Source of the DNA: a virus
IMG/VR virus record: IMGVR_UViG_3300045591_000053
Span: 1 to 32,352 of that record
Length of the DNA: 32,352 bases
Reading direction: 5' to 3' (one strand)
The notes below the pieces were generated by a model. That model made no database searches. It worked only from the letters and a program-made list of their open reading frames with translations, and was not told the origin of the DNA. Positions 8,078-21,320 of the stretch are shown piece after piece (the stretch's first letter is position 1; every line of letters begins with the position of its first letter). The translations under genes and the position numbers were made by a program.

Positions 8078-9304
8078 TCATCCCGACACACTTTCAGCGC
8101 TTGCCATCGCATCGTTGACGGCTTTTTCAAACACCGTCGCTGCGTACTCGTCGCGCCCCGGCAACACGTGCGCATAGATTCGCAACGTGGTTGCCACGTC
8201 CCTATGCCCCAAGCGCTCGGAAACGGTTTGAATGTCAACGCCATGCGTAAGTAGCCATGTCGCGTGCGTATGCCTTAGATCGTGGAACGTGAAGCCCTTC
8301 GGCATGGCGGTGTTCATGGCAAGGCGCTTGAATGCCTTTGAAATGGCTGTCGGTCTGCAATAGCCGCCGTCGAACGTCACAAGTGGCGCGTCTTGCGGAA
8401 GCTCGCCACAGAACGACGTTCTAAGCCTTATGAAGCCGTCTATCGTCTCAATGTCCGACTTGCTAAGGCTGACCGGTCTTGACCTGCGCCCCTTCGTAAC
8501 GTCGCGCCTATACGGCTTCTTGCCCGTCTCTTCAATCACGGTGCCGCCGACAAGGATTTGCGGCTTCTTGTTCTCTTGCTTCTCCTTGGAATAGTCGCGG
8601 TTGCGCACGGCGCACACCTCGCCGCAACGCATCCCGGTTGCAAGCGCCATCCAAGCGGCAAACGCGTTCATTGCATTTCTGTACGTGTGCGCGTCTATAA
8701 TGGAAGGTTTAAGCAATGCTTTAAGCTGTGCTTCAATCGCCCTGAAATCACCTATGTTCAGCGCTTGCGCTTCATGGTGAACAAGTTTCGGCTTATCGAC
8801 GCTTAGCAGCGGGTTTGAATCGCAAACCTTCATCCTCACAAAGAAGGTGAATGCGGCGTTAAGGAAGTCATGCACGCCGCGAACGCTGTTTTGCGACAAG
8901 CCTTGCCCGCCGGCGTCCTTCGGCGTGAGCAACCTTTGCTCAAAGCGCGATAGATCAAAGCTGCTTACGTCGCGGGCGTTGACGCTCGGAAGGTACTTGG
9001 CAACCTTGGCAACGTATCTTGTAAACCTTTTGTAGGCACGCACGCTGTTTGGCGAATAGCCGTTACGTGAACGCATGTCTATGAACCCGTTAAGCAGGTC
9101 AACAAGCAAGGCGCTATCGAGAAGACCGTTGGCGGTTAGGTCAGACTTCCACGCTTCCGCAAGCTTGATTGCTTGTTCTTCCGTCTCGGCTGTCGGAAGG
9201 TCGCGTTGCTTCTCGACCTTCCTTCCGTCATCGGTTCGCCCGATGAACAGACGCGCAACCCAGACGCCGCGCCTTGCGTCCCACTTGACCTTAACGCCAG
9301 CCAT
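8078..9304 (-). CDS. int: Tyrosine recombinase / phage integrase family protein
   Basis: C-terminal catalytic box FHDLRHTHATWLL...LGHRDVATTLRIYAHV, with an upstream ...ATGMRCGEVCAV (Arg box). The N-terminus MAGVKVKWDARRGVWVARLFIG looks like an arm-binding domain. Start chosen at 9304; the track ORF extends to 9352. Confidence 0.85.
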   Translation of the reverse strand: MAGVKVKWDARRGVWVARLFIGRTDDGRKVEKQRDLPTAETEEQAIKLAEAWKSDLTANGLLDSALLVDLLNGFIDMRSRNGYSPNSVRAYKRFTRYVAKVAKYLPSVNARDVSSFDLSRFEQRLLTPKDAGGQGLSQNSVRGVHDFLNAAFTFFVRMKVCDSNPLLSVDKPKLVHHEAQALNIGDFRAIEAQLKALLKPSIIDAHTYRNAMNAFAAWMALATGMRCGEVCAVRNRDYSKEKQENKKPQILVGGTVIEETGKKPYRRDVTKGRRSRPVSLSKSDIETIDGFIRLRTSFCGELPQDAPLVTFDGGYCRPTAISKAFKRLAMNTAMPKGFTFHDLRHTHATWLLTHGVDIQTVSERLGHRDVATTLRIYAHVLPGRDEYAATVFEKAVNDAMASAESVSG

Positions 9305-9473
9305 TTTTAACAGCCTTCCCGATTGCGTATGCCGTAACAAGGCACGAAACAAGGCACGTCAGCACATAGGCAAGCAGCCCGAACCAAACGCCGTTGAAGA
9401 TGCCGACGCCGATTCCAACGCCGATAGGAACTGCCGCAAAAAGCAGCACGATTGCCAAGCACCCACGGTTCAT
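9291..9473 (-). CDS. Small membrane protein (2 predicted TM helices)
   Basis: 60 aa, hydrophobic (CLAIVLLFAAVPIGVGIGVGIF...FGLLAYVLTCLVSCLV). Overlaps both neighbours. Confidence 0.5.
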   Translation of the reverse strand: MNRGCLAIVLLFAAVPIGVGIGVGIFNGVWFGLLAYVLTCLVSCLVTAYAIGKAVKNGWR

Positions 9474-9691
9474 TTCTGATCACCGTTGTTGCGTGCTATC
9501 GCCGCGTTAGCCCACATGATGCATTCTTCAAGCTTCGTGTTCGCCAACGAACGCTCGCGGCTTTCCGGGCAATCCTTCAGGATGGTTAGCGCAAAGCCCT
9601 TGGCTTGTGACCTGATTTCCTCGTAAAGCTCGATTTGGTCTTGGTTTGGCGCGTGGTATGACAAGTTGTTTTCAATGGTCTTCGAGTTCAT
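9470..9691 (-). CDS. Small helical phage protein. Possible Acb2-like cyclic-nucleotide sponge (anti-CBASS family); tentative.
   Basis: 73 aa. Pattern SYHAPNQDQIELYEEIR...PESRERSLANTKLEECIMWANAAIARN. As I recall, this Y-H-x-P ... SRExSLAxTKLEE ... MWANAAI pattern is shared by the Acb2-type hairpin family. Not verified. Confidence 0.35.
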   Translation of the reverse strand: MNSKTIENNLSYHAPNQDQIELYEEIRSQAKGFALTILKDCPESRERSLANTKLEECIMWANAAIARNNGDQK

Positions 9692-13065: not shown

Positions 13066-13496
13066 TCTGCTATCTCCTTTTCGAGGTCATCGAACATTGA
13101 TTTGTGGGTGACAATCCGCATTTCGGGATGAAGCGAAAGCAGCCAACGCGCCATAAGCGGCGTAATGGTGTTGTTGATGCAGTAGTCGTGTTCAACGCCG
13201 TATTGGTCTACGTAAGGCACTGCAACAAGCTTTGAGCGCCCTTCGTAGCGCATCCGCTCGATTAGGTACTTGGTCGATACGCGCAAGCCCCGCGCGTCGA
13301 TTCCAAGCGCAACGGCTTCAATCTCATGCGCTGCCTTCGGGTTGGCTTTGAGCCAATCAATGAACAGATCAACGTCGCTTTGGGCTTTCAGCGGCACCGG
13401 GTACGTAGCGGCGCGTTCCTGCGCCACAACGGCTTCTATCGGCTGCGTGAAGTCATCGACGTTGATTGCCGGGTCGCTCGGTGTCTTATAGGTCAT
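13041..13496 (-). CDS. Hypothetical protein
   Basis: Start chosen at MTYKTPSD (13496). The track ORF extends to 13532. Confidence 0.5.
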   Translation of the reverse strand: MTYKTPSDPAINVDDFTQPIEAVVAQERAATYPVPLKAQSDVDLFIDWLKANPKAAHEIEAVALGIDARGLRVSTKYLIERMRYEGRSKLVAVPYVDQYGVEHDYCINNTITPLMARWLLSLHPEMRIVTHKSMFDDLEKEIAECLGNQKR

Positions 13497-13881
13497 GGCG
13501 CACCAACCCATAAAGCAAAGCCACGTCGGCACCCAAGCACGCTAGGAAAGCCAAGTTGCCGTAAGCGTCCATAACCCAGATTTGAAGCTCGGCAACAGCC
13601 ATAGGCAAAATGCCTGAAAGGGTAAGCGCGGCAAGGATGTATAAGGCACCCTTCTTCAGCTTTTGCCGCGTTATAATGGGTTCGTCAAATCGCGTGCCGC
13701 GTTTTTGACATGCAACCGTGCGGGTTCCAGCCGTGCGGTTGCTTCTTTTTTCCGGCAATTCATAGCGTCCGTAAGGCTGTGAAAGAAAGCCTTCTGCGTC
13801 GCGTCTTGGTGTTCGCGGCGTTGGTCTACGACGAACGTTATAACCATTGGTTAAACCTCTGGTTGTCATAATTGCTTTCAT
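13486..13881 (-). CDS. Hypothetical protein with a basic N-terminal half and a hydrophobic C-terminal half
   Basis: Strong SD GGAGGGAG 7 nt upstream of ATG at 13881. C-terminus ALYILAALTLSGILPMAVA...LAFLACLGADVALLYGLV. Confidence 0.6.
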   Translation of the reverse strand: MKAIMTTRGLTNGYNVRRRPTPRTPRRDAEGFLSQPYGRYELPEKRSNRTAGTRTVACQKRGTRFDEPIITRQKLKKGALYILAALTLSGILPMAVAELQIWVMDAYGNLAFLACLGADVALLYGLVRHDL

Positions 13882-13900
13882 TCAATTTCTCCCTCCATTC

Positions 13901-14008
13901 CGTTTAGCAACGCTTTAAGCAGTGCTTTAGCAACGCTTTAAGCAGTGCTTTAGCAACGCTTTAAGCAGTGCTTTAGCAACGCTTTAAGCAGTGCTTTAGC
14001 AACGCTTA
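13901..14008. repeat. Tandem array of four perfect 23-bp units (CGCTTTAAGCAGTGCTTTAGCAA) plus partial units at both ends. Iteron or protein-binding array.
   Basis: Perfect copies at 13911, 13934, 13957 and 13980. Each unit holds two related half-sites, GCTTTAAGCA and GCTTTAGCA, about 11.5 bp apart. Confidence 0.9.
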
Positions 14009-14221
14009 TTGCTTTGATTCAGGCTGCATGAGCAAATAAATGTCATCCAGAGACACGCCGAGGATGCGCGAAAGCCTATAGGCTTCACCAAAGCTGAATT
14101 CGTATGAACCTCTCAGCTTGTTGAAGAACGACGAACGGCTGATGCCGAGTTCGTCAGCTATTGCATTCTTCGTTGTTCCCTTTGCCTTGGCATACTGCCC
14201 AACCTTCTCTTGCAAATTCAT
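14006..14221 (-). CDS. XRE-family HTH regulator, Cro-like (first gene of the leftward early operon)
   Basis: MNLQEKVGQYAKAKGTTKNAIADELGISRSSFFNKLRG shows an HTH_3 pattern. SD AGGGGGGTGA upstream of ATG at 14221. Divergent from a second HTH gene. Confidence 0.75.
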   Translation of the reverse strand: MNLQEKVGQYAKAKGTTKNAIADELGISRSSFFNKLRGSYEFSFGEAYRLSRILGVSLDDIYLLMQPESKQ

Positions 14222-14240
14222 GCCAACATTCACCCCCCTA

Positions 14241-14266
14241 ATGGCGTACAAAACTTTGTACGCCAT
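14241..14266. promoter_or_regulatory. Operator O1: perfect palindrome with 12-bp arms (ATGGCGTACAAA-AC-TTTGTACGCCAT)
   Basis: Read directly from the sequence. Lies between the divergent HTH genes, downstream of the predicted leftward -10. Confidence 0.65.
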
Positions 14267-14267
14267 T

Positions 14268-14296
14268 AGTATTGTACAAAACTTTGTACCGTGCAA
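14268..14296 (-). promoter_or_regulatory. Candidate leftward (early lytic) promoter: -35 TTGCAC, 17-bp spacer, -10 AATACT
   Basis: On the minus strand, -35 = rc of 14291..14296 and -10 = rc of 14268..14273. Face-to-face with the rightward promoter. Confidence 0.4.
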
Positions 14297-14300
14297 TACT
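14272..14300 (+). promoter_or_regulatory. Candidate rightward (lysogeny-operon) promoter: -35 TTGTAC, 17-bp spacer, extended -10 TGCAATACT
   Basis: -35 at 14272..14277 and -10 at 14295..14300, with TG at 14292..14293. Confidence 0.4.
14274..14289. promoter_or_regulatory. Operator O2: GTACAAA-AC-TTTGTAC, the same core as O1
   Basis: Second copy of the 16-bp core, 33 bp (centre to centre) from O1. Sits in the spacer of both predicted promoters. Confidence 0.6.
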
Positions 14301-14339
14301 TTAAACGTGCAATTACTTGGACGATATGAAGGGCGTGCG

Positions 14340-14558
14340 ATGGAGTACGGGAAGGTGCTTGCATATTACTTAGATAAGCAAGGTATGACGCCCGCCGAAC
14401 TCGCGCATAGAATCGGGTCGCCAAGGTCAACTATTAATGCGCTGCTGCACGGAAGGGCAAAGGAACCAACATTAGGCAAGGCAAAGGCAATTGCTGATGC
14501 GCTTGGCGTCTCACTTGAGGAAATGGCAAGAATGACCTATGAAGACCCAGATAAATAG
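14340..14558 (+). CDS. XRE-family HTH regulator, candidate prophage repressor (CI-like; only 72 aa)
   Basis: MEYGKVLAYYLDKQGMTPAELAHRIGSPRSTINALLHG shows an HTH_3 pattern. It heads the plus-strand operon that ends in the serine integrase. Confidence 0.7.
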   Translation: MEYGKVLAYYLDKQGMTPAELAHRIGSPRSTINALLHGRAKEPTLGKAKAIADALGVSLEEMARMTYEDPDK

Positions 14559-14614
14559 GTCATCAAAGATATGTCGTTGTGCTGTTAGTTCATACACAAG
14601 TTGAAAGGCTGACA

Positions 14615-15505
14615 ATGACGCGCAAAGAAAATCTAATGACACTAGACCCAAAGAATGTAATCGTCTTCGATACTGAAACCACCGGAACAGACGTTGGCGG
14701 AAATGATGAAGTTCTTTCGCTCGCCGTAATGAACCTATCCGGAGATGTTCTTTTCTATGACACGTTCAAGCCATCGCACCGCAAACGTTGGTCTAAGGCT
14801 GAAAGTATCAACGGCATAAGCCCTGACATGGTGCAGGACAAGCAGACAATAGAAGAGCGTAAGGGTGAGATTGAACCACTATTCCGCTCTGCAAATCTAT
14901 ACGTTGCCTATAATGCAGATTTCGACCTAGGCTGCTTGCGTGCCGCAGGTCTTGATATTCCAAAGTGCCAAACATTCGACGTTATGAAGGAATTCGCGAA
15001 AATTCACGGTGAATGGAACCAGCAATTTGATGAATGGCAATGGTGCAAGCTTATAGATTGTGCCGCGTATTACGGTTATCGAGACTTTGGAGCGCACGAC
15101 GCATTGGCTGACGTGAAGGCAACAGCGCATTGCTATATGTCAATTCTCGATGATCCATTGTTTGAAGAACCACGTCGCCGCCCAAAGATGATTGAAGATG
15201 AATTCGGCGATACTTACCCAGATTATGACGATGAAGAATATAGAGACATCGTTTATAGCGGATATGCTGCCGATTCGGCTAAAAGTGCCAAGCCAAGCAA
15301 TACGCGTGAACATGTCAATCAAAAACCAGCAGCACATAAGGTAACGAATAAACAGCTTGGTAAGGCAAAGCCCGCGCTTGTGGGTGTAAGCGTCCTATGC
15401 GTTGTTGTGGGCTTGTTCATCGCTATTGCAGGTTCTCTTATCGTTGGTATTCTCGTCATCGTTATAGGTGTGCTATTAGCTCTCGTGGCAAAAGGACGTA
15501 AATAG
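14615..15505 (+). CDS. DEDDh (DnaQ-like) 3'-5' exonuclease domain fused to an acidic linker and a C-terminal transmembrane anchor
   Basis: Exo I VFDTETTG, Exo II AYNADFD, Exo III HDALADV. C-terminus ALVGVSVLCVVVGLFIAIAGSLIVGILVIVIGVLLALVAKGRK. Start chosen at ATG 14615 (GAAAGG SD). Confidence 0.75.
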   Translation: MTRKENLMTLDPKNVIVFDTETTGTDVGGNDEVLSLAVMNLSGDVLFYDTFKPSHRKRWSKAESINGISPDMVQDKQTIEERKGEIEPLFRSANLYVAYNADFDLGCLRAAGLDIPKCQTFDVMKEFAKIHGEWNQQFDEWQWCKLIDCAAYYGYRDFGAHDALADVKATAHCYMSILDDPLFEEPRRRPKMIEDEFGDTYPDYDDEEYRDIVYSGYAADSAKSAKPSNTREHVNQKPAAHKVTNKQLGKAKPALVGVSVLCVVVGLFIAIAGSLIVGILVIVIGVLLALVAKGRK

Positions 15506-15598: not shown

Positions 15599-17146
15599 AT
15601 GAGTAAGAACCGCGCGGCTATATACGCCCGCTTCTCGTCGCACAACCAGCGCTCGGAATCAATCGAAATCCAAGTTGAAAACTCAACCGCCTATTGCAAG
15701 GAAAATGGGCTTGAGGTCGTGCGCACCTATGCGGATTATGCCAAGACCGGGCGCAACGCTGATCGTGCCGAATTTCAACGCATGATGGCAGATGCCCGAA
15801 CGGGCTTGTTTGATTATGTGGTCATCTACAAGATAACCCGAATCATGCGCAACCGCGATGAAATGGCGCTCGCACGTATCATGCTGCGAAAGGCGGGCGT
15901 TGAAATCCTCTATGCAGGTGAGGAAATCGCCGACGGTTCCAGCGGCGTCCTTCAACTCGGAATGTTGGAAGTGCTCGCCGAATACGAAAGCGCCATTGAT
16001 AGCGAACGCATCAGGGACGGCATAAAGAAGAACGCTGAAAGGTGCATGGCGAACGGGCGCACGCTCTACGGGTGGGACATTGTAGACGGCTATTACCAAG
16101 TCAACGAACGTGAAGCCTATTGGCTGCGCAAGATGAAGAACATGTTGCTTAGCGGGTCAACCATGGCTGAAGTCGTGCGCGGCGTCTCTGCCATGCGCAC
16201 GCGCAACGGCAAGCAGCTGAATCAGGACACGGCTACAAAGCTTCTCCGTAGGGTTCAGAACGGCGGCACATACTCTTATGCGGGCGTTGTCGTTGATGGC
16301 GGAATGCCGGCGTTCTGGTCAAAGACCGAACAAGACATGATCATATCCATTCTGAAGCGCCGCCATAAGCCGCATAGGCGTATAGACAGTTCGCAAGAAT
16401 GGCCGCTGACCGGCAAGCTTTGGTGCGCTTGCTGCGATGCCACGTTGTCGGGAACCAGCGGAACAAGCGCCACGGGCAAGACATACGCCTATTACAAGTG
16501 CAACAAGTGCGGGCGTACCTTCAGGCGCGACATTTTGGAAGATGCCATTGTCGATGTGGTCTGCCAAGCGGTGAAGCAGCCCGAAATTAGAGAAAACATC
16601 GCCTACGGAATGGCGCAATATGAAGCGTCGCAAGAAGACGATACGCCGCTTGAAAGCGAAAGGATAAAAGGGGAAATTCGGCGCATAGACAACGCCTTTG
16701 AAAGAATCTGGCAAGCCATAGAAGACGGCATAGCGCCGCCGGGTGGCAAAGAAAGGGTTGAGGAATTGCGCGAACGCAAGACTGACCTTGAAACCCAGTA
16801 CCAGATAGCGAAAGCCAACGAATCGGCTAAACCTAGCTACGATGATCTAATGCGTTGGCTTGACGAAATGGCGGAACATCTGACGCCACAAGAAATTTTG
16901 AAGATGTTCATTCGCGCCGCCGAAATCGACGGTGACGTTATAAGGCTGTTTTTTGCCTTCGATTACTACGGCGATGATTTCACACCGCCAAAGCATAGAC
17001 ACGAACTAGCCCAGAAACGGGCTAGTTCGTGTATTTCTCCTATGGTGGAGCCTAAGCGAAATAGCGCGAACGCTTACACGATAACGCTAAAGTGCGGCTA
17101 TTTGCAGGTGAACCGTAACTGGTTCGTGATTGTGCGCGATATATAA
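15599..17146 (+). CDS. Large serine recombinase (serine integrase)
   Basis: N-terminal resolvase domain AAIYARFSSHNQRSESIEIQ. Recombinase domain. Zinc ribbon CACCDATLSG...YYKCNKCGRTF. Coiled-coil region. 515 aa. Confidence 0.9.
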   Translation: MSKNRAAIYARFSSHNQRSESIEIQVENSTAYCKENGLEVVRTYADYAKTGRNADRAEFQRMMADARTGLFDYVVIYKITRIMRNRDEMALARIMLRKAGVEILYAGEEIADGSSGVLQLGMLEVLAEYESAIDSERIRDGIKKNAERCMANGRTLYGWDIVDGYYQVNEREAYWLRKMKNMLLSGSTMAEVVRGVSAMRTRNGKQLNQDTATKLLRRVQNGGTYSYAGVVVDGGMPAFWSKTEQDMIISILKRRHKPHRRIDSSQEWPLTGKLWCACCDATLSGTSGTSATGKTYAYYKCNKCGRTFRRDILEDAIVDVVCQAVKQPEIRENIAYGMAQYEASQEDDTPLESERIKGEIRRIDNAFERIWQAIEDGIAPPGGKERVEELRERKTDLETQYQIAKANESAKPSYDDLMRWLDEMAEHLTPQEILKMFIRAAEIDGDVIRLFFAFDYYGDDFTPPKHRHELAQKRASSCISPMVEPKRNSANAYTITLKCGYLQVNRNWFVIVRDI

Positions 17147-20090: not shown

Positions 20091-21116
20091 TCAGCCGAAA
20101 AGCTGCGAAAACAACGCGTCCATGCTCTTAACCGTCCTGTGCGCGTCTAGCTTCTTCAGCTTGCGCCGCTCGCGCGTCACGGCGGCGCGACAAGGGCGCA
20201 CAATGACTTTGCCAGTTTCGCCATACTCAAACCTCTTCTTCAGATAGGTAAAGCCGTGCGATAGCTTCACTATGTGCGTCTTCTTCTCGTTGACGATGAT
20301 TCCCAGCTTTTCGCACTCTCGCCGAATATCCGCCATGACGGCGTGAAGGTCTGACTTGTGAAGCGCGATGCAATAAAGGTCATCCATGTAACGCCCGCTC
20401 GCGAGAACGCAAGGCGTGCGCAACAACATGTGGTCGATAGGGCTTGGCAACGCGACTGCTAATACTTGGTTCGGTTCGCTGCCAAGCCCAAGACCACGTG
20501 AGCCGTGGGAATCAATCTGATCATAGACAAGCGCCTTCACGCGCGAATCGTCAAGGCACCTATCGACAAGGCGCTTTGCCGCGTCGTGGTCGATGTTTCC
20601 AAAGTAGTTAGAGAAGTCAACAAGCAGTATGTAGCCTTCCCGCCCGTGCTTCTGGTAGTGCCTTGCAAGCTGCCGTTTGAGACGCTTTAGCGCGTATTCG
20701 GTGCCGCGTCCCTTGATGTTCGCCGAACAACCGGCGGTGACCGTCGGAATTATCGCCGGGACAAGCGCGTAACGGTTCATCGCCTTGTGTATGACGCGCT
20801 CGGAAAAGCGAACCGACGTGATGTGCCGCATCTTCCCACGCTCGCAAATGTCGAACTCAAAGAATCCGCGCCGAATGTCCTTGCCTGAAAGCAGGTCATC
20901 ACGCGCCCTGCGAACGTTCGTTAGGCACCGCGCCATGTATCGTTGAACGGATGCCTTCCAGCCAACGCCGCCGCTGCAAGCGTGGGCGCACTTGTAAAGG
21001 TGGTCAACGTCCGTAATCTGTTCAAGCGTGCATTGTTCTATGCGCTTTGCCTTGTTCGCGGCTCTCTTTGCATCGCGGCGGGCACGTCTCGCCGCCCGCC
21101 GCTCTTCTGATTTCAT
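20091..21116 (-). CDS. DGR reverse transcriptase
   Basis: RT motifs ILLVDFSNYFGNIDH and RYMDDLYCIA (YxDD). LGSEPNQ occupies the position of the DGR-typical (I/L)GxxxSQ motif. Start chosen at MKSEERRAARR (21116); the track ORF extends to 21203. Confidence 0.9.
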   Translation of the reverse strand: MKSEERRAARRARRDAKRAANKAKRIEQCTLEQITDVDHLYKCAHACSGGVGWKASVQRYMARCLTNVRRARDDLLSGKDIRRGFFEFDICERGKMRHITSVRFSERVIHKAMNRYALVPAIIPTVTAGCSANIKGRGTEYALKRLKRQLARHYQKHGREGYILLVDFSNYFGNIDHDAAKRLVDRCLDDSRVKALVYDQIDSHGSRGLGLGSEPNQVLAVALPSPIDHMLLRTPCVLASGRYMDDLYCIALHKSDLHAVMADIRRECEKLGIIVNEKKTHIVKLSHGFTYLKKRFEYGETGKVIVRPCRAAVTRERRKLKKLDAHRTVKSMDALFSQLFG

Positions 21117-21320
21117 AGGCACCCCGCACGGCTTCCAATCGGCATTCCATAGCCGCTTAGGCACCAGCAATGAAACGCAAGCGAACGCCGAAACCTGCGC
21201 CATGCAAGCAGCGGTCTGCGGTGCCCACGGGGTGCGTATTTACGGCGCAAGCGCCGAACGTTGCATCTTCCTTCCTTGTGCGCACGGATTGCGGACGTAT
21301 CCGCAATGACTGGCATTGCA

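Follow-up and report, generated by a model that had tools for sequence, protein, structure and literature searches.

Introduction

Membrane-bound nucleases that act on foreign or stray DNA have been described in bacteria and mammals, and they are the closest counterparts of the protein analysed here, a putative membrane-tethered DnaQ-like (DEDDh) 3'-5' exonuclease of 296 residues encoded at positions 14615–15505 (+ strand) of IMG/VR virus record IMGVR_UViG_3300045591_000053 (positions 1 to 32,352 of that record, 32,352 nucleotides, hereafter the window). SNIPE of E. coli is a membrane-bound GIY-YIG nuclease that cleaves lambda DNA during injection and becomes toxic once its transmembrane (TM) segment is removed; most of its homologues have one or two TM helices of variable sequence (bioRxiv 10.1101/2025.11.03.685801). 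Mpr (multicopy phage resistance) of Mycobacterium smegmatis is a membrane-anchored 3'-5' DNA exonuclease, whose resistance to phages D29 and L5 requires both nuclease activity and membrane anchoring; it was proposed to degrade the entering linear genome, and its nuclease region was reported to resemble no known nuclease (PMC12596739). TREX1 is a mammalian DEDDh 3'-5' DNA exonuclease with a C-terminal hydrophobic membrane segment and a cytosolic catalytic domain that clears stray DNA (PMC11904002). An earlier sequence-only reading of the window had presented the gene as a tail-anchored exonuclease of a kind that it did not recognise, but SNIPE, Mpr and the tail-anchored TREX1 make the idea less unprecedented than it seemed.

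Two further groups are comparable by position or by domain. The proteins Sie2009, Ltp and similar from temperate phages of Gram-positive bacteria, which act in superinfection exclusion (Sie), are membrane-associated, encoded between repressor and integrase, made by the lysogen, and keep the DNA of other phages out; to our knowledge, the known Sie proteins lack an enzymatic domain and block injection rather than degrade DNA. The CRISPR-associated DEDDh/DnaQ proteins, represented by Cas2-DEDDh (8fyc) and the DnaQ domain of S. thermophilus (8h2f), trim DNA in the 3'-5' direction as part of immunity. Literature searches found no account of a DEDDh/DnaQ-like exonuclease that has a transmembrane segment and is encoded in a lysogeny module. 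As set out below, the predicted architecture, the conservation and the genomic context of the phage exonuclease point to a membrane-localised, lysogeny-linked function.

Exonuclease domain

Residues 1–180 (window 14615–15154, + strand) form the DEDDh (DnaQ-like) 3'-5' exonuclease domain, as assigned with Pfam, sequence alignment, AlphaFold2 and Foldseek. The Pfam family RNase_T (PF00929) was matched over residues 16–172 with 61.9 bits (cutoff 24; E=1.4e-16), and the match to the exonuclease family PHROG 192 had a value of 4.7e-41. All elements of the DEDDh signature (DxE, NxxxD and Hx4D) are present: Exo I is DTETTG (residues 19–24, catalytic D19 and E21), Exo II is YNADFD (residues 99–104, catalytic N100 and D104), and Exo III is HDALAD (residues 161–166, catalytic H161 and D166). 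The catalytic residues of the three motifs are invariant in an alignment of 25 homologues with 37–84% identity, in agreement with the complete DnaQ-like domain that had been recognised from the letters of the window.

The AlphaFold2 model, built on a 25-sequence alignment (mean predicted local distance difference test score (pLDDT) 85.7, predicted template modelling score 0.72), shows the RNase H-like α/β fold over residues 1–180, with block-mean pLDDT values of 80–98. Foldseek returned a probability of 1.00 for 8h2f, 2p1j, 4fzx, 8fyc and 1wlj, the best structural match being 8h2f, the CRISPR-associated DnaQ domain of S. thermophilus (E=3.5e-7), with further matches to the PolC exonuclease (2p1j), ExoX (4fzx), Cas2-DEDDh (8fyc), ISG20 and ISG20L2. 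These neighbours of the predicted structure place the domain among ordinary DEDDh exonucleases, and the phage protein is, by its predicted fold and its catalytic residues, a catalytically intact DEDDh 3'-5' exonuclease.

Among sequence profiles, the PADLOC DEDDh profile gave the best match (2.5e-27), and the candidate-defence profile PDC-S48 (411 aa) was matched over positions 7–168 only, corresponding to the exonuclease part (E=2.9e-12), with no full-length match. Although the CRISPR-associated DEDDh/DnaQ enzymes thus provide the best profile and structural matches, they are soluble, fused or adjacent to cas1/cas2, and trim prespacers, whereas the phage protein is anchored and its gene is flanked by those of a helix-turn-helix (HTH) repressor and a serine integrase.

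C-terminal extension and membrane hairpin

The 296-residue product starts at the ATG at 14615 within an open reading frame that the program-made list gives as 14579–15505 (+ strand); GAAAGG lies 9 nt upstream of the start codon, and the choice of start agrees with the homologues in the alignment, which share an N-terminus beginning with MTRKE. The exonuclease domain is followed by a conserved C-terminal extension (residues 181–228; 15155–15298, + strand; alignment and AlphaFold2), which carries a basic EPRRRPK motif and then an acidic stretch of the form DEFG..Y.DYDDEEYR..SGYA. In the alignment, D180 is invariant, and E185, R187 and P190 are conserved in at least 90% of the sequences. The model contains a β-hairpin at residues 191–203 (strands 191–194 and 200–203) and a helix at residues 217–225, with pLDDT values of about 87–93 across residues 181–220. 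The acidic stretch (DEFGDTYPDYDDEEYRD), formerly described as an acidic low-complexity linker, is hence conserved and confidently modelled as structured. The true linker, predicted to be disordered, comprises residues 229–250 (15299–15364, + strand), which have pLDDT values below 50 and vary in length and sequence between homologues.

Residues 248–296 are hydrophobic, with a Kyte-Doolittle maximum of 3.16 in a 19-residue window. From hydropathy and the AlphaFold2 model, a transmembrane hairpin is predicted (15371–15505, + strand), consisting of helix 1 (residues 253–271), the turn G-S-L and helix 2 (residues 275–292), and its conservation pattern in the alignment is ALV..G..C...G..I...G..IVG......G..LA..AKG.K. 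The hairpin has basic flanks, a K-rich NKQLGKAKP segment on its N-side and a KGRK tail before the stop codon, and no signal peptide was found in the protein. Given the basic flanks on both sides and the missing signal peptide, the positive-inside rule and the AlphaFold2 model allow the inference that both termini are inside (N-in/C-in) and that the nuclease faces the cytoplasm, with the KGRK tail predicted back on the cytoplasmic side. The hydrophobic C-terminal anchor of about 40 residues that had been reported for the protein is therefore real and conserved, and the topology and structure predictions that had been proposed as a check support membrane attachment; they do not support a tail anchor in the strict sense of a single C-terminal TM segment with type II orientation and a short extracytoplasmic tail, since the model has two helices joined by a three-residue turn.

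Compared with the described systems, the phage protein shares with SNIPE a constitutively membrane-bound, cytoplasmic nuclease domain, predicted in the present case, and a variable anchor among the members of the family. SNIPE differs in combining an N-terminal TM segment with DUF4041, which binds DNA and the tape measure protein, and a GIY-YIG endonuclease, whereas here a DEDDh domain precedes a C-terminal hairpin; in addition, the present protein is phage-encoded and linked to a CI-type repressor, no homology to SNIPE was found, and its function is putative. Pfam gave no hit to DUF4041, GIY-YIG or DUF4352 in the phage exonuclease, RNase_T being the only family found. Mpr is likewise a membrane-anchored 3'-5' exonuclease, as predicted here, but it is chromosomal and has an N-terminal anchor and a C-terminal DUF4352, so that the architecture of the phage protein is reversed and devoid of DUF4352; the latter is, moreover, a canonical DEDDh enzyme. 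TREX1 matches the phage protein in joining a DEDDh domain to a C-terminal membrane attachment, but it is eukaryotic, resides at the endoplasmic reticulum through a single-pass tail anchor and restrains innate immunity rather than excluding a virus, and it was absent from the top 50 Foldseek matches. On this comparison, the resemblance to TREX1 is one of convergent architecture and not of family membership. We tentatively regard the phage exonuclease as a functional analogue, rather than a homologue, of SNIPE, Mpr and TREX1, with the last of which it shares the superfamily fold; such an analogy is quite conceivable, if somewhat short of probable.

Protein family and its anchors

A search of 5.8 billion proteins yielded 97 relatives, approximately 28 of which are full-length (about 300 aa) and 44–83% identical to the phage protein, so that homologues with the same exonuclease-anchor fusion, which the sequence-only reading had suggested looking for, were recovered down to 44% identity. 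With the exception of P0029 (257 aa), the full-length relatives all retain the hydrophobic C-terminus, in which the glycine spacing and the basic tail are unchanged. The homologue from Olsenella sp. Marseille-P4559 is 78% identical and is annotated only as '3'-5' exonuclease'.

The possibility that the hydrophobic tail arose from a mis-called frame, raised when the gene was first described, was examined separately and discarded: across the roughly 28 homologues the substitutions in the tail are conservative and the basic end is the same, and a tail kept as protein between 83% and 44% identity cannot stem from a wrong frame.

More distant relatives carry anchors that are, by sequence, non-homologous to the hairpin, namely a single terminal TM segment (P0027/28, P0055, P0067/68 and P0079–83), a TM2 domain (PF05154; P0035 and P0039) or an N-terminal TM segment (P0066). 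A neighbour-joining tree of the exonuclease domains separates two anchored clades and contains several anchor types within one of them. HMMER, run exhaustively against 1.84 billion cluster representatives (50% identity), returned 1,010 clusters at E<=1e-30, and 88 of the best 150 of these 1,010 representatives are membrane-anchored, a figure obtained with a search profile that included TM columns; the same 150 candidates were re-ranked with an exonuclease-only hidden Markov model (HMM), by which the anchored fraction was 0.76 for the first 25, 0.68 for the first 50 and 0.59 for all 150. The 88 anchored representatives comprise 69 with C-terminal TM segments, 16 with N-terminal segments and 3 with other arrangements. 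Exo I is kept in 86 and Exo III in 85 of the 88, which argues that catalysis is under selection. As the anchors are conserved and yet replaced by unrelated ones, and as the anchored fraction is high, membrane location as such appears to be selected across the family, as does catalysis.

A scan of species-representative genomes returned mostly soluble, distant exonuclease domains (Dialister, Selenomonas and polyvalent proteins of Treponema) and a single anchored form, from Slackia. Of three single-protein scans of IMG/VR, made with the diverse anchored representatives P0119, P0107 and P0124, one yielded a weak locus and the other two yielded nothing. The family is large and is not annotated as membrane-tethered: database labels for the relatives read '3'-5' exonuclease' or 'DEDDh', or 'DNA polymerase exonuclease subunit' in the case of PHROG 192, and they miss both the membrane anchor and the genomic context.

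The hairpin itself could be read as the active part of an abortive effector, in which the exonuclease senses or processes invading ends and the glycine-rich TM hairpin then oligomerises, permeabilises the membrane and kills the cell. Many abortive effectors are small two-TM modules fused to a sensor, the glycines of the hairpin are conserved and regularly spaced, and Abi_2 genes neighbour some of the relatives. The exchange of the hairpin for single TM segments, a TM2 domain or N-terminal TM segments nevertheless fits tethering better than pore formation, and the catalytic residues are strictly kept, so we consider this role improbable.

Genomic context

The exonuclease gene lies between a candidate repressor and a serine integrase, as the sequence-only reading had indicated. 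The upstream neighbour, the first gene on the lysogeny strand (14340–14558, + strand), encodes a CI-type repressor candidate of 72 aa that consists of HTH_3 only (Pfam, 3.8e-13) and also matches the transcriptional repressor families PHROG 4 and PHROG 3. No terminator-like site was found on the + strand between the repressor stop and the exonuclease start. The downstream neighbour (15599–17146, + strand) encodes a large serine integrase, 515 aa in its attP form (Pfam Resolvase, 2.2e-27, and Zn_ribbon_recom; PHROG 95, 1.1e-85).

The same position recurs in relatives. At 14 of the 15 anchored-form loci examined, which represent 11 different proteins in about seven phage backgrounds, the exonuclease gene stands directly behind a CI-type HTH gene that is divergent from cro, and the repressor stop and the exonuclease start often overlap or abut, in keeping with the earlier placement of the gene in the lysogeny module on the strand of repressor and integrase. 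The slot of the Sie genes, between repressor and integrase on the repressor strand, is occupied by the exonuclease gene in the window and at 14 of the 15 loci, and membrane association, the other hallmark of Sie genes, is predicted from hydropathy, charge distribution and AlphaFold2; the Sie proteins are nevertheless not homologous to the phage exonuclease. The backgrounds include Olsenella-type siphophages with a serine integrase (L001–L011 and L104–L108), a phage with Bro-N/ANT early genes (L012), a RecT/YqaJ phage in which the gene lies at the prophage end (L013), and two loci with the order cI, exo, DUF2806, orf, Abi_2, serine integrase, lysin (L014/L015). A TM2-anchored form is followed by Abi_2 (L016), and Abi_2 (AbiD/F-type) genes thus lie in the exonuclease operon in L014–L016. 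In the Slackia element (L030), a repressor with HTH_3 and Peptidase_S24 precedes a 407-aa two-TM exonuclease, a HicB-like gene and a tyrosine-integrase-like gene.

The immunity regions of the window phage and of the Olsenella prophage could not be aligned over 13864–14597, and nucleotide homology begins again at 14598, which is 17 nt short of the exonuclease ATG. Because homology resumes past differing immunity regions, the block of exonuclease and integrase genes moves independently of repressor specificity. This finding bears on whether the exonuclease is a partner of the repressor in the lysis-lysogeny switch, coupling a membrane or DNA-damage signal to induction from the slot that ImmA occupies elsewhere. 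The order of HTH repressor, exonuclease and integrase resembles the ImmR-ImmA-Int layout, the CI protein has only 72 aa and no cleavage domain, and repressor and exonuclease genes overlap in several relatives. Such a partnership is nonetheless highly unlikely in our assessment, as the exonuclease block also stands behind an S24 self-cleaving CI, which needs no helper, and as the otherwise 86%-identical Olsenella prophage has a different immunity cassette before the block; furthermore, we know of no nuclease that acts as an anti-repressor.

The exonuclease gene is also a compositional outlier, with a GC content of 45.8% and a GC content at third codon positions (GC3) of 42.8%, compared with GC3 values of 68–72% in the genes of TerL, the tape measure protein and the lysin. 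This difference from the core genes gives it the appearance of a moron and bears out the description of the locus as moron-like.

Composition and strand both weigh on the view that the protein belongs to ordinary phage DNA metabolism, as a proofreading, repair or end-processing enzyme in replication, recombination or lysogenisation whose anchor would reflect membrane-associated replication. PHROG 192, labelled 'DNA polymerase exonuclease subunit' and comprising P2-like and VP882-like proteins, belongs to the same domain family, although those proteins are soluble. The homologue of the P2-like Salmonella phage SEN8 (about 195 aa) is encoded in an early/replication operon, between early genes, Dam and gpA, and that of VP882 (about 206 aa) among unannotated genes near those of ParA and a protelomerase. 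The NCBIfam epsilon and PolC exonuclease models also matched, with best scores of 34–42 bits, but their cutoffs of 196–1043 were not reached by any of them. The proteobacterial homologues (about 190–206 aa) are only 30–31% identical and lack an anchor. The phage encodes a single-stranded DNA-binding protein, a dUTPase, a replication-initiator-like protein and a tyrosine recombinase, and no DNA polymerase, primase or helicase was found among its genes; the exonuclease gene lies on the strand opposite all replication genes, coupled to the repressor, and has a composition atypical for the phage. On balance, a role in DNA metabolism is unlikely. The earlier concern that homologues might turn out to be ordinary replication-associated exonucleases applies to the wider family, more distant soluble members of which lie in replication operons of P2-like phages, but not to this clade, in which same-position homologues are not replication-associated.

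A replicative proofreader had also been considered as the primary reading of the gene, and was rejected on the unmet NCBIfam cutoffs, the missing polymerase, neither encoded nor fused, and the wrong strand and position.

Elsewhere, soluble forms of 165–176 aa and forms fused to DUF3846 and LPD16 are encoded on plasmid or conjugative backbones with ParAB, RepA_N, RadC, Fic, Zeta and PLD, and one soluble relative adjoins a type I restriction-modification system and AbiH. Proteins of 2561 aa (L032, 2374–10059) and 760 aa (L036, 1391–3673) from metagenome-assembled genomes of Treponema contain the same exonuclease domain, and elements of Clostridia encode 408-aa DUF3846-exonuclease-LPD16 proteins; from the giant Treponema proteins and the DUF3846/LPD16 fusions it follows that polyvalent proteins of conjugative elements make use of this domain as well.

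Proposed function

We propose, tentatively and as one serious possibility, that the protein is a lysogen-expressed, membrane-tethered exonuclease that attacks the ends of incoming DNA. From the context and architecture of the gene, we infer that the lysogen expresses it, that its product acts on DNA ends and that the phenotype is one of exclusion. The exonuclease gene is probably co-transcribed with that of the repressor from the maintenance promoter, and the protein would then be made continuously in the lysogen. Held by its hairpin at the inner side of the membrane, the nuclease would meet foreign linear DNA at the point of entry and digest the free 3' ends of this DNA, be it superinfecting phage genomes, including those with 3' cohesive ends, or transforming single-stranded DNA. 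The latter enters the cell 3' end first. As to the former, an HNH gene adjoins the terminase genes in the window phage, and since this arrangement is typical of cos phages, related phages would expose single-stranded cohesive ends. Trimming of 3' ends could block circularisation or establishment of the entering DNA, and the outcome would be exclusion of heteroimmune phages that the repressor cannot stop. The host chromosome and the resident prophage, being circular or endless and away from the membrane, would be spared, so that self and non-self would be told apart without sequence recognition. Published precedents for protection by a membrane-bound nuclease are SNIPE, which destroys phage DNA on entry, and Mpr, which is proposed to do so.

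Several points weigh against this proposal. The structural neighbours mix DNA and RNA exonucleases, and the substrate, whether DNA or RNA, single- or double-stranded, or short oligonucleotides, is not readable from the sequence. A scan with PADLOC gave generic exonuclease-domain matches only. The topology is based on hydropathy, charge and AlphaFold2 rather than on a dedicated TM predictor or an experiment. One RNA-type run was available, and it contained diverged relatives of the integrase/lysin region only and nothing over the exonuclease. The N-terminally anchored P0066 is encoded at a locus (L185) that has no recognisable repressor upstream, although the contig is so short that the locus speaks neither for nor against the link to CI. 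Distant soluble relatives are located in replication operons of P2-like phages, and the conjugative or plasmid context of the closest soluble relatives suggests an establishment or anti-defence role. A lone 3'-5' exonuclease may, in addition, be too slow or be stopped by end-protecting proteins. The defence role is a well-motivated hypothesis. At the P0066 locus (L185, 1630–2340), the next gene after that of the exonuclease encodes a 236-aa K+ channel-like protein (Ion_trans/Ion_trans_2).

The plasmid context leads to a further alternative, a counter-defence or establishment factor that removes nucleic-acid immune molecules at the membrane and thereby protects the phage or prophage from host systems with membrane-protein effectors. 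Its targets could be short linear or nicked signalling oligonucleotides, retron-type multicopy single-stranded DNA, or 3' ends generated by defence systems. DEDDh enzymes such as oligoribonuclease degrade short oligonucleotides, and the closest soluble relatives reside on conjugative or plasmid elements with the gene content given above, some of them fused to the polyvalent-protein domains DUF3846 and LPD16; the 2561-aa polyvalent-type protein of Treponema has the domain too. The phage also encodes a gene of the Acb2/Tad1 family; this gene, however, sits in the early lytic operon and not beside the repressor, and the anchored forms lie on the lysogeny strand in the company of Abi_2 genes. An association with a specific host defence system was not observed, and we judge a counter-defence role to be rather unlikely.

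Membrane-tethered attack on incoming DNA ends may extend beyond this phage. With some more reserve than for the single gene, we consider it possible that mobile elements harbour a large class of immunity genes, so far unrecognised, that encode membrane-tethered DEDDh exonucleases, are wired to the repressor in prophages and guard DNA entry. Such a class would comprise dozens of 50%-identity clusters with repeatedly gained and swapped anchors, and it would target phage genomes, transforming DNA and possibly conjugative DNA.

Other features of the phage

The window represents an almost complete temperate siphophage in the excised (attP) permutation rather than an integrated prophage, and its host is an Olsenella-like bacterium of gut or sludge. 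A Cro-like HTH gene (14006–14296, - strand; Pfam HTH_3, 3.7e-6; PHROG transcriptional repressor families) diverges from the repressor gene and opens the early (lytic) operon, which runs leftward. Between the divergent HTH genes lie two identical 16-bp palindromic operators, GTACAAAACTTTGTAC (14246–14261 and 14274–14289); two perfect copies, corresponding to four matches on both strands, compare with 0.13 expected and were reached in 0 of 100 shuffles. The GTACAAAACTTTGTAC pair marks the predicted genetic switch. Downstream of the cro-like gene and upstream of an open reading frame at 13486–13881, a 23-bp unit, TTTAGCAACGCTTTAAGCAGTGC, is present in approximately five tandem copies (13903–14017). 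Public assemblies break within this array and its word depth is 3–4 times higher, so its copy number is perhaps collapsed or variable; the units may be iterons or binding sites.

The attP region (16999–17060) contains a perfect 14-bp inverted repeat (16999–17032) and the homology break at 17050, and the att crossover precedes roughly the last 32 codons of the integrase gene. Window 17050 is the exact end of homology to the integrated prophage of Olsenella sp. Marseille-P4559 (L005) and likewise to the alternative phage variants L001, L003 and L004. The L005 junction falls inside the 3' end of a transfer-messenger RNA (tmRNA) gene, which was found with the Rfam tmRNA model (137 bits) and missed by ARAGORN, and the order in this prophage is early genes and cro, then on the opposite strand cI, exo and int, and finally the host ssrA. 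The tmRNA 3' end serves as the bacterial site attB, and relatives use tRNA-Ala (L009) or tmRNA (L105). In the att region (window 16999–17146; L005, 12438–12808), the C-terminus of the integrase depends on the form, giving 515 aa in attP, 506 aa when integrated and 551 aa in variant L001. Other contigs of the same study agree at 100% identity along the left arm as far as the att core and then differ in the right arm (window 17050 onward versus L001 12436 onward); the right arm of L001 carries extra + strand genes, including that of an HTH_31 protein, and an Amidase_2 lysin replaces the GH25/LysM lysin. Either tandem prophages or a mosaic join placed precisely at the recombination site could account for these alternative right arms.

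In addition to the serine integrase, a tyrosine recombinase is encoded in the middle of the early lytic operon (8078–9352, - strand; PF00589; PHROG 1 integrase, 1.8e-51). It is conserved in all related phages and may be a dimer resolvase or a second integration system. The same operon contains a 73-aa open reading frame at about 9470–9691 (- strand; equivalent to L001 4856–5077) with the Pfam domain Acb2_Tad1_hairpin, a family of anti-CBASS/anti-Thoeris nucleotide sponges, and the Olsenella prophage has one too. In the tail-fibre/lysis-proximal region (20091–21318, - strand), a reverse transcriptase open reading frame (20091–21203; RVT_1) overlaps the Rfam RNA RT-2 (RF03077; 90.8 bits; 21099–21318), and this locus is probably a diversity-generating retroelement.

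Biological implications

The principle of defence at the membrane is already known; new here are the different nuclease fold, its location on a prophage and its link to the repressor. Defence by a nuclease that recognises foreign DNA by where it is and by its ends, and not through sequence or modification, is a very recent discovery, made with SNIPE and Mpr. The family is readily tractable, with a single gene, clear catalytic residues, a removable anchor and a cultured lysogen, Olsenella sp. Marseille-P4559, whose prophage lies at about 1.075–1.088 Mb of LR027573.1. If one of the alternatives held instead, the family would consist either of anti-defence enzymes located at the membrane or of abortive effectors of a new type. 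If the proposed function is true, the anchored DEDDh exonucleases would be a bacterial counterpart of the logic of TREX1 and, after SNIPE and Mpr, a third mechanistically distinct nuclease defence based on spatial discrimination of self and non-self, with the same defence principle reached independently through a different nuclease fold. The principle would then be widespread in Gram-positive bacteria of gut and rumen, and temperate phages would extend their superinfection immunity by means of a repressor-linked nuclease.

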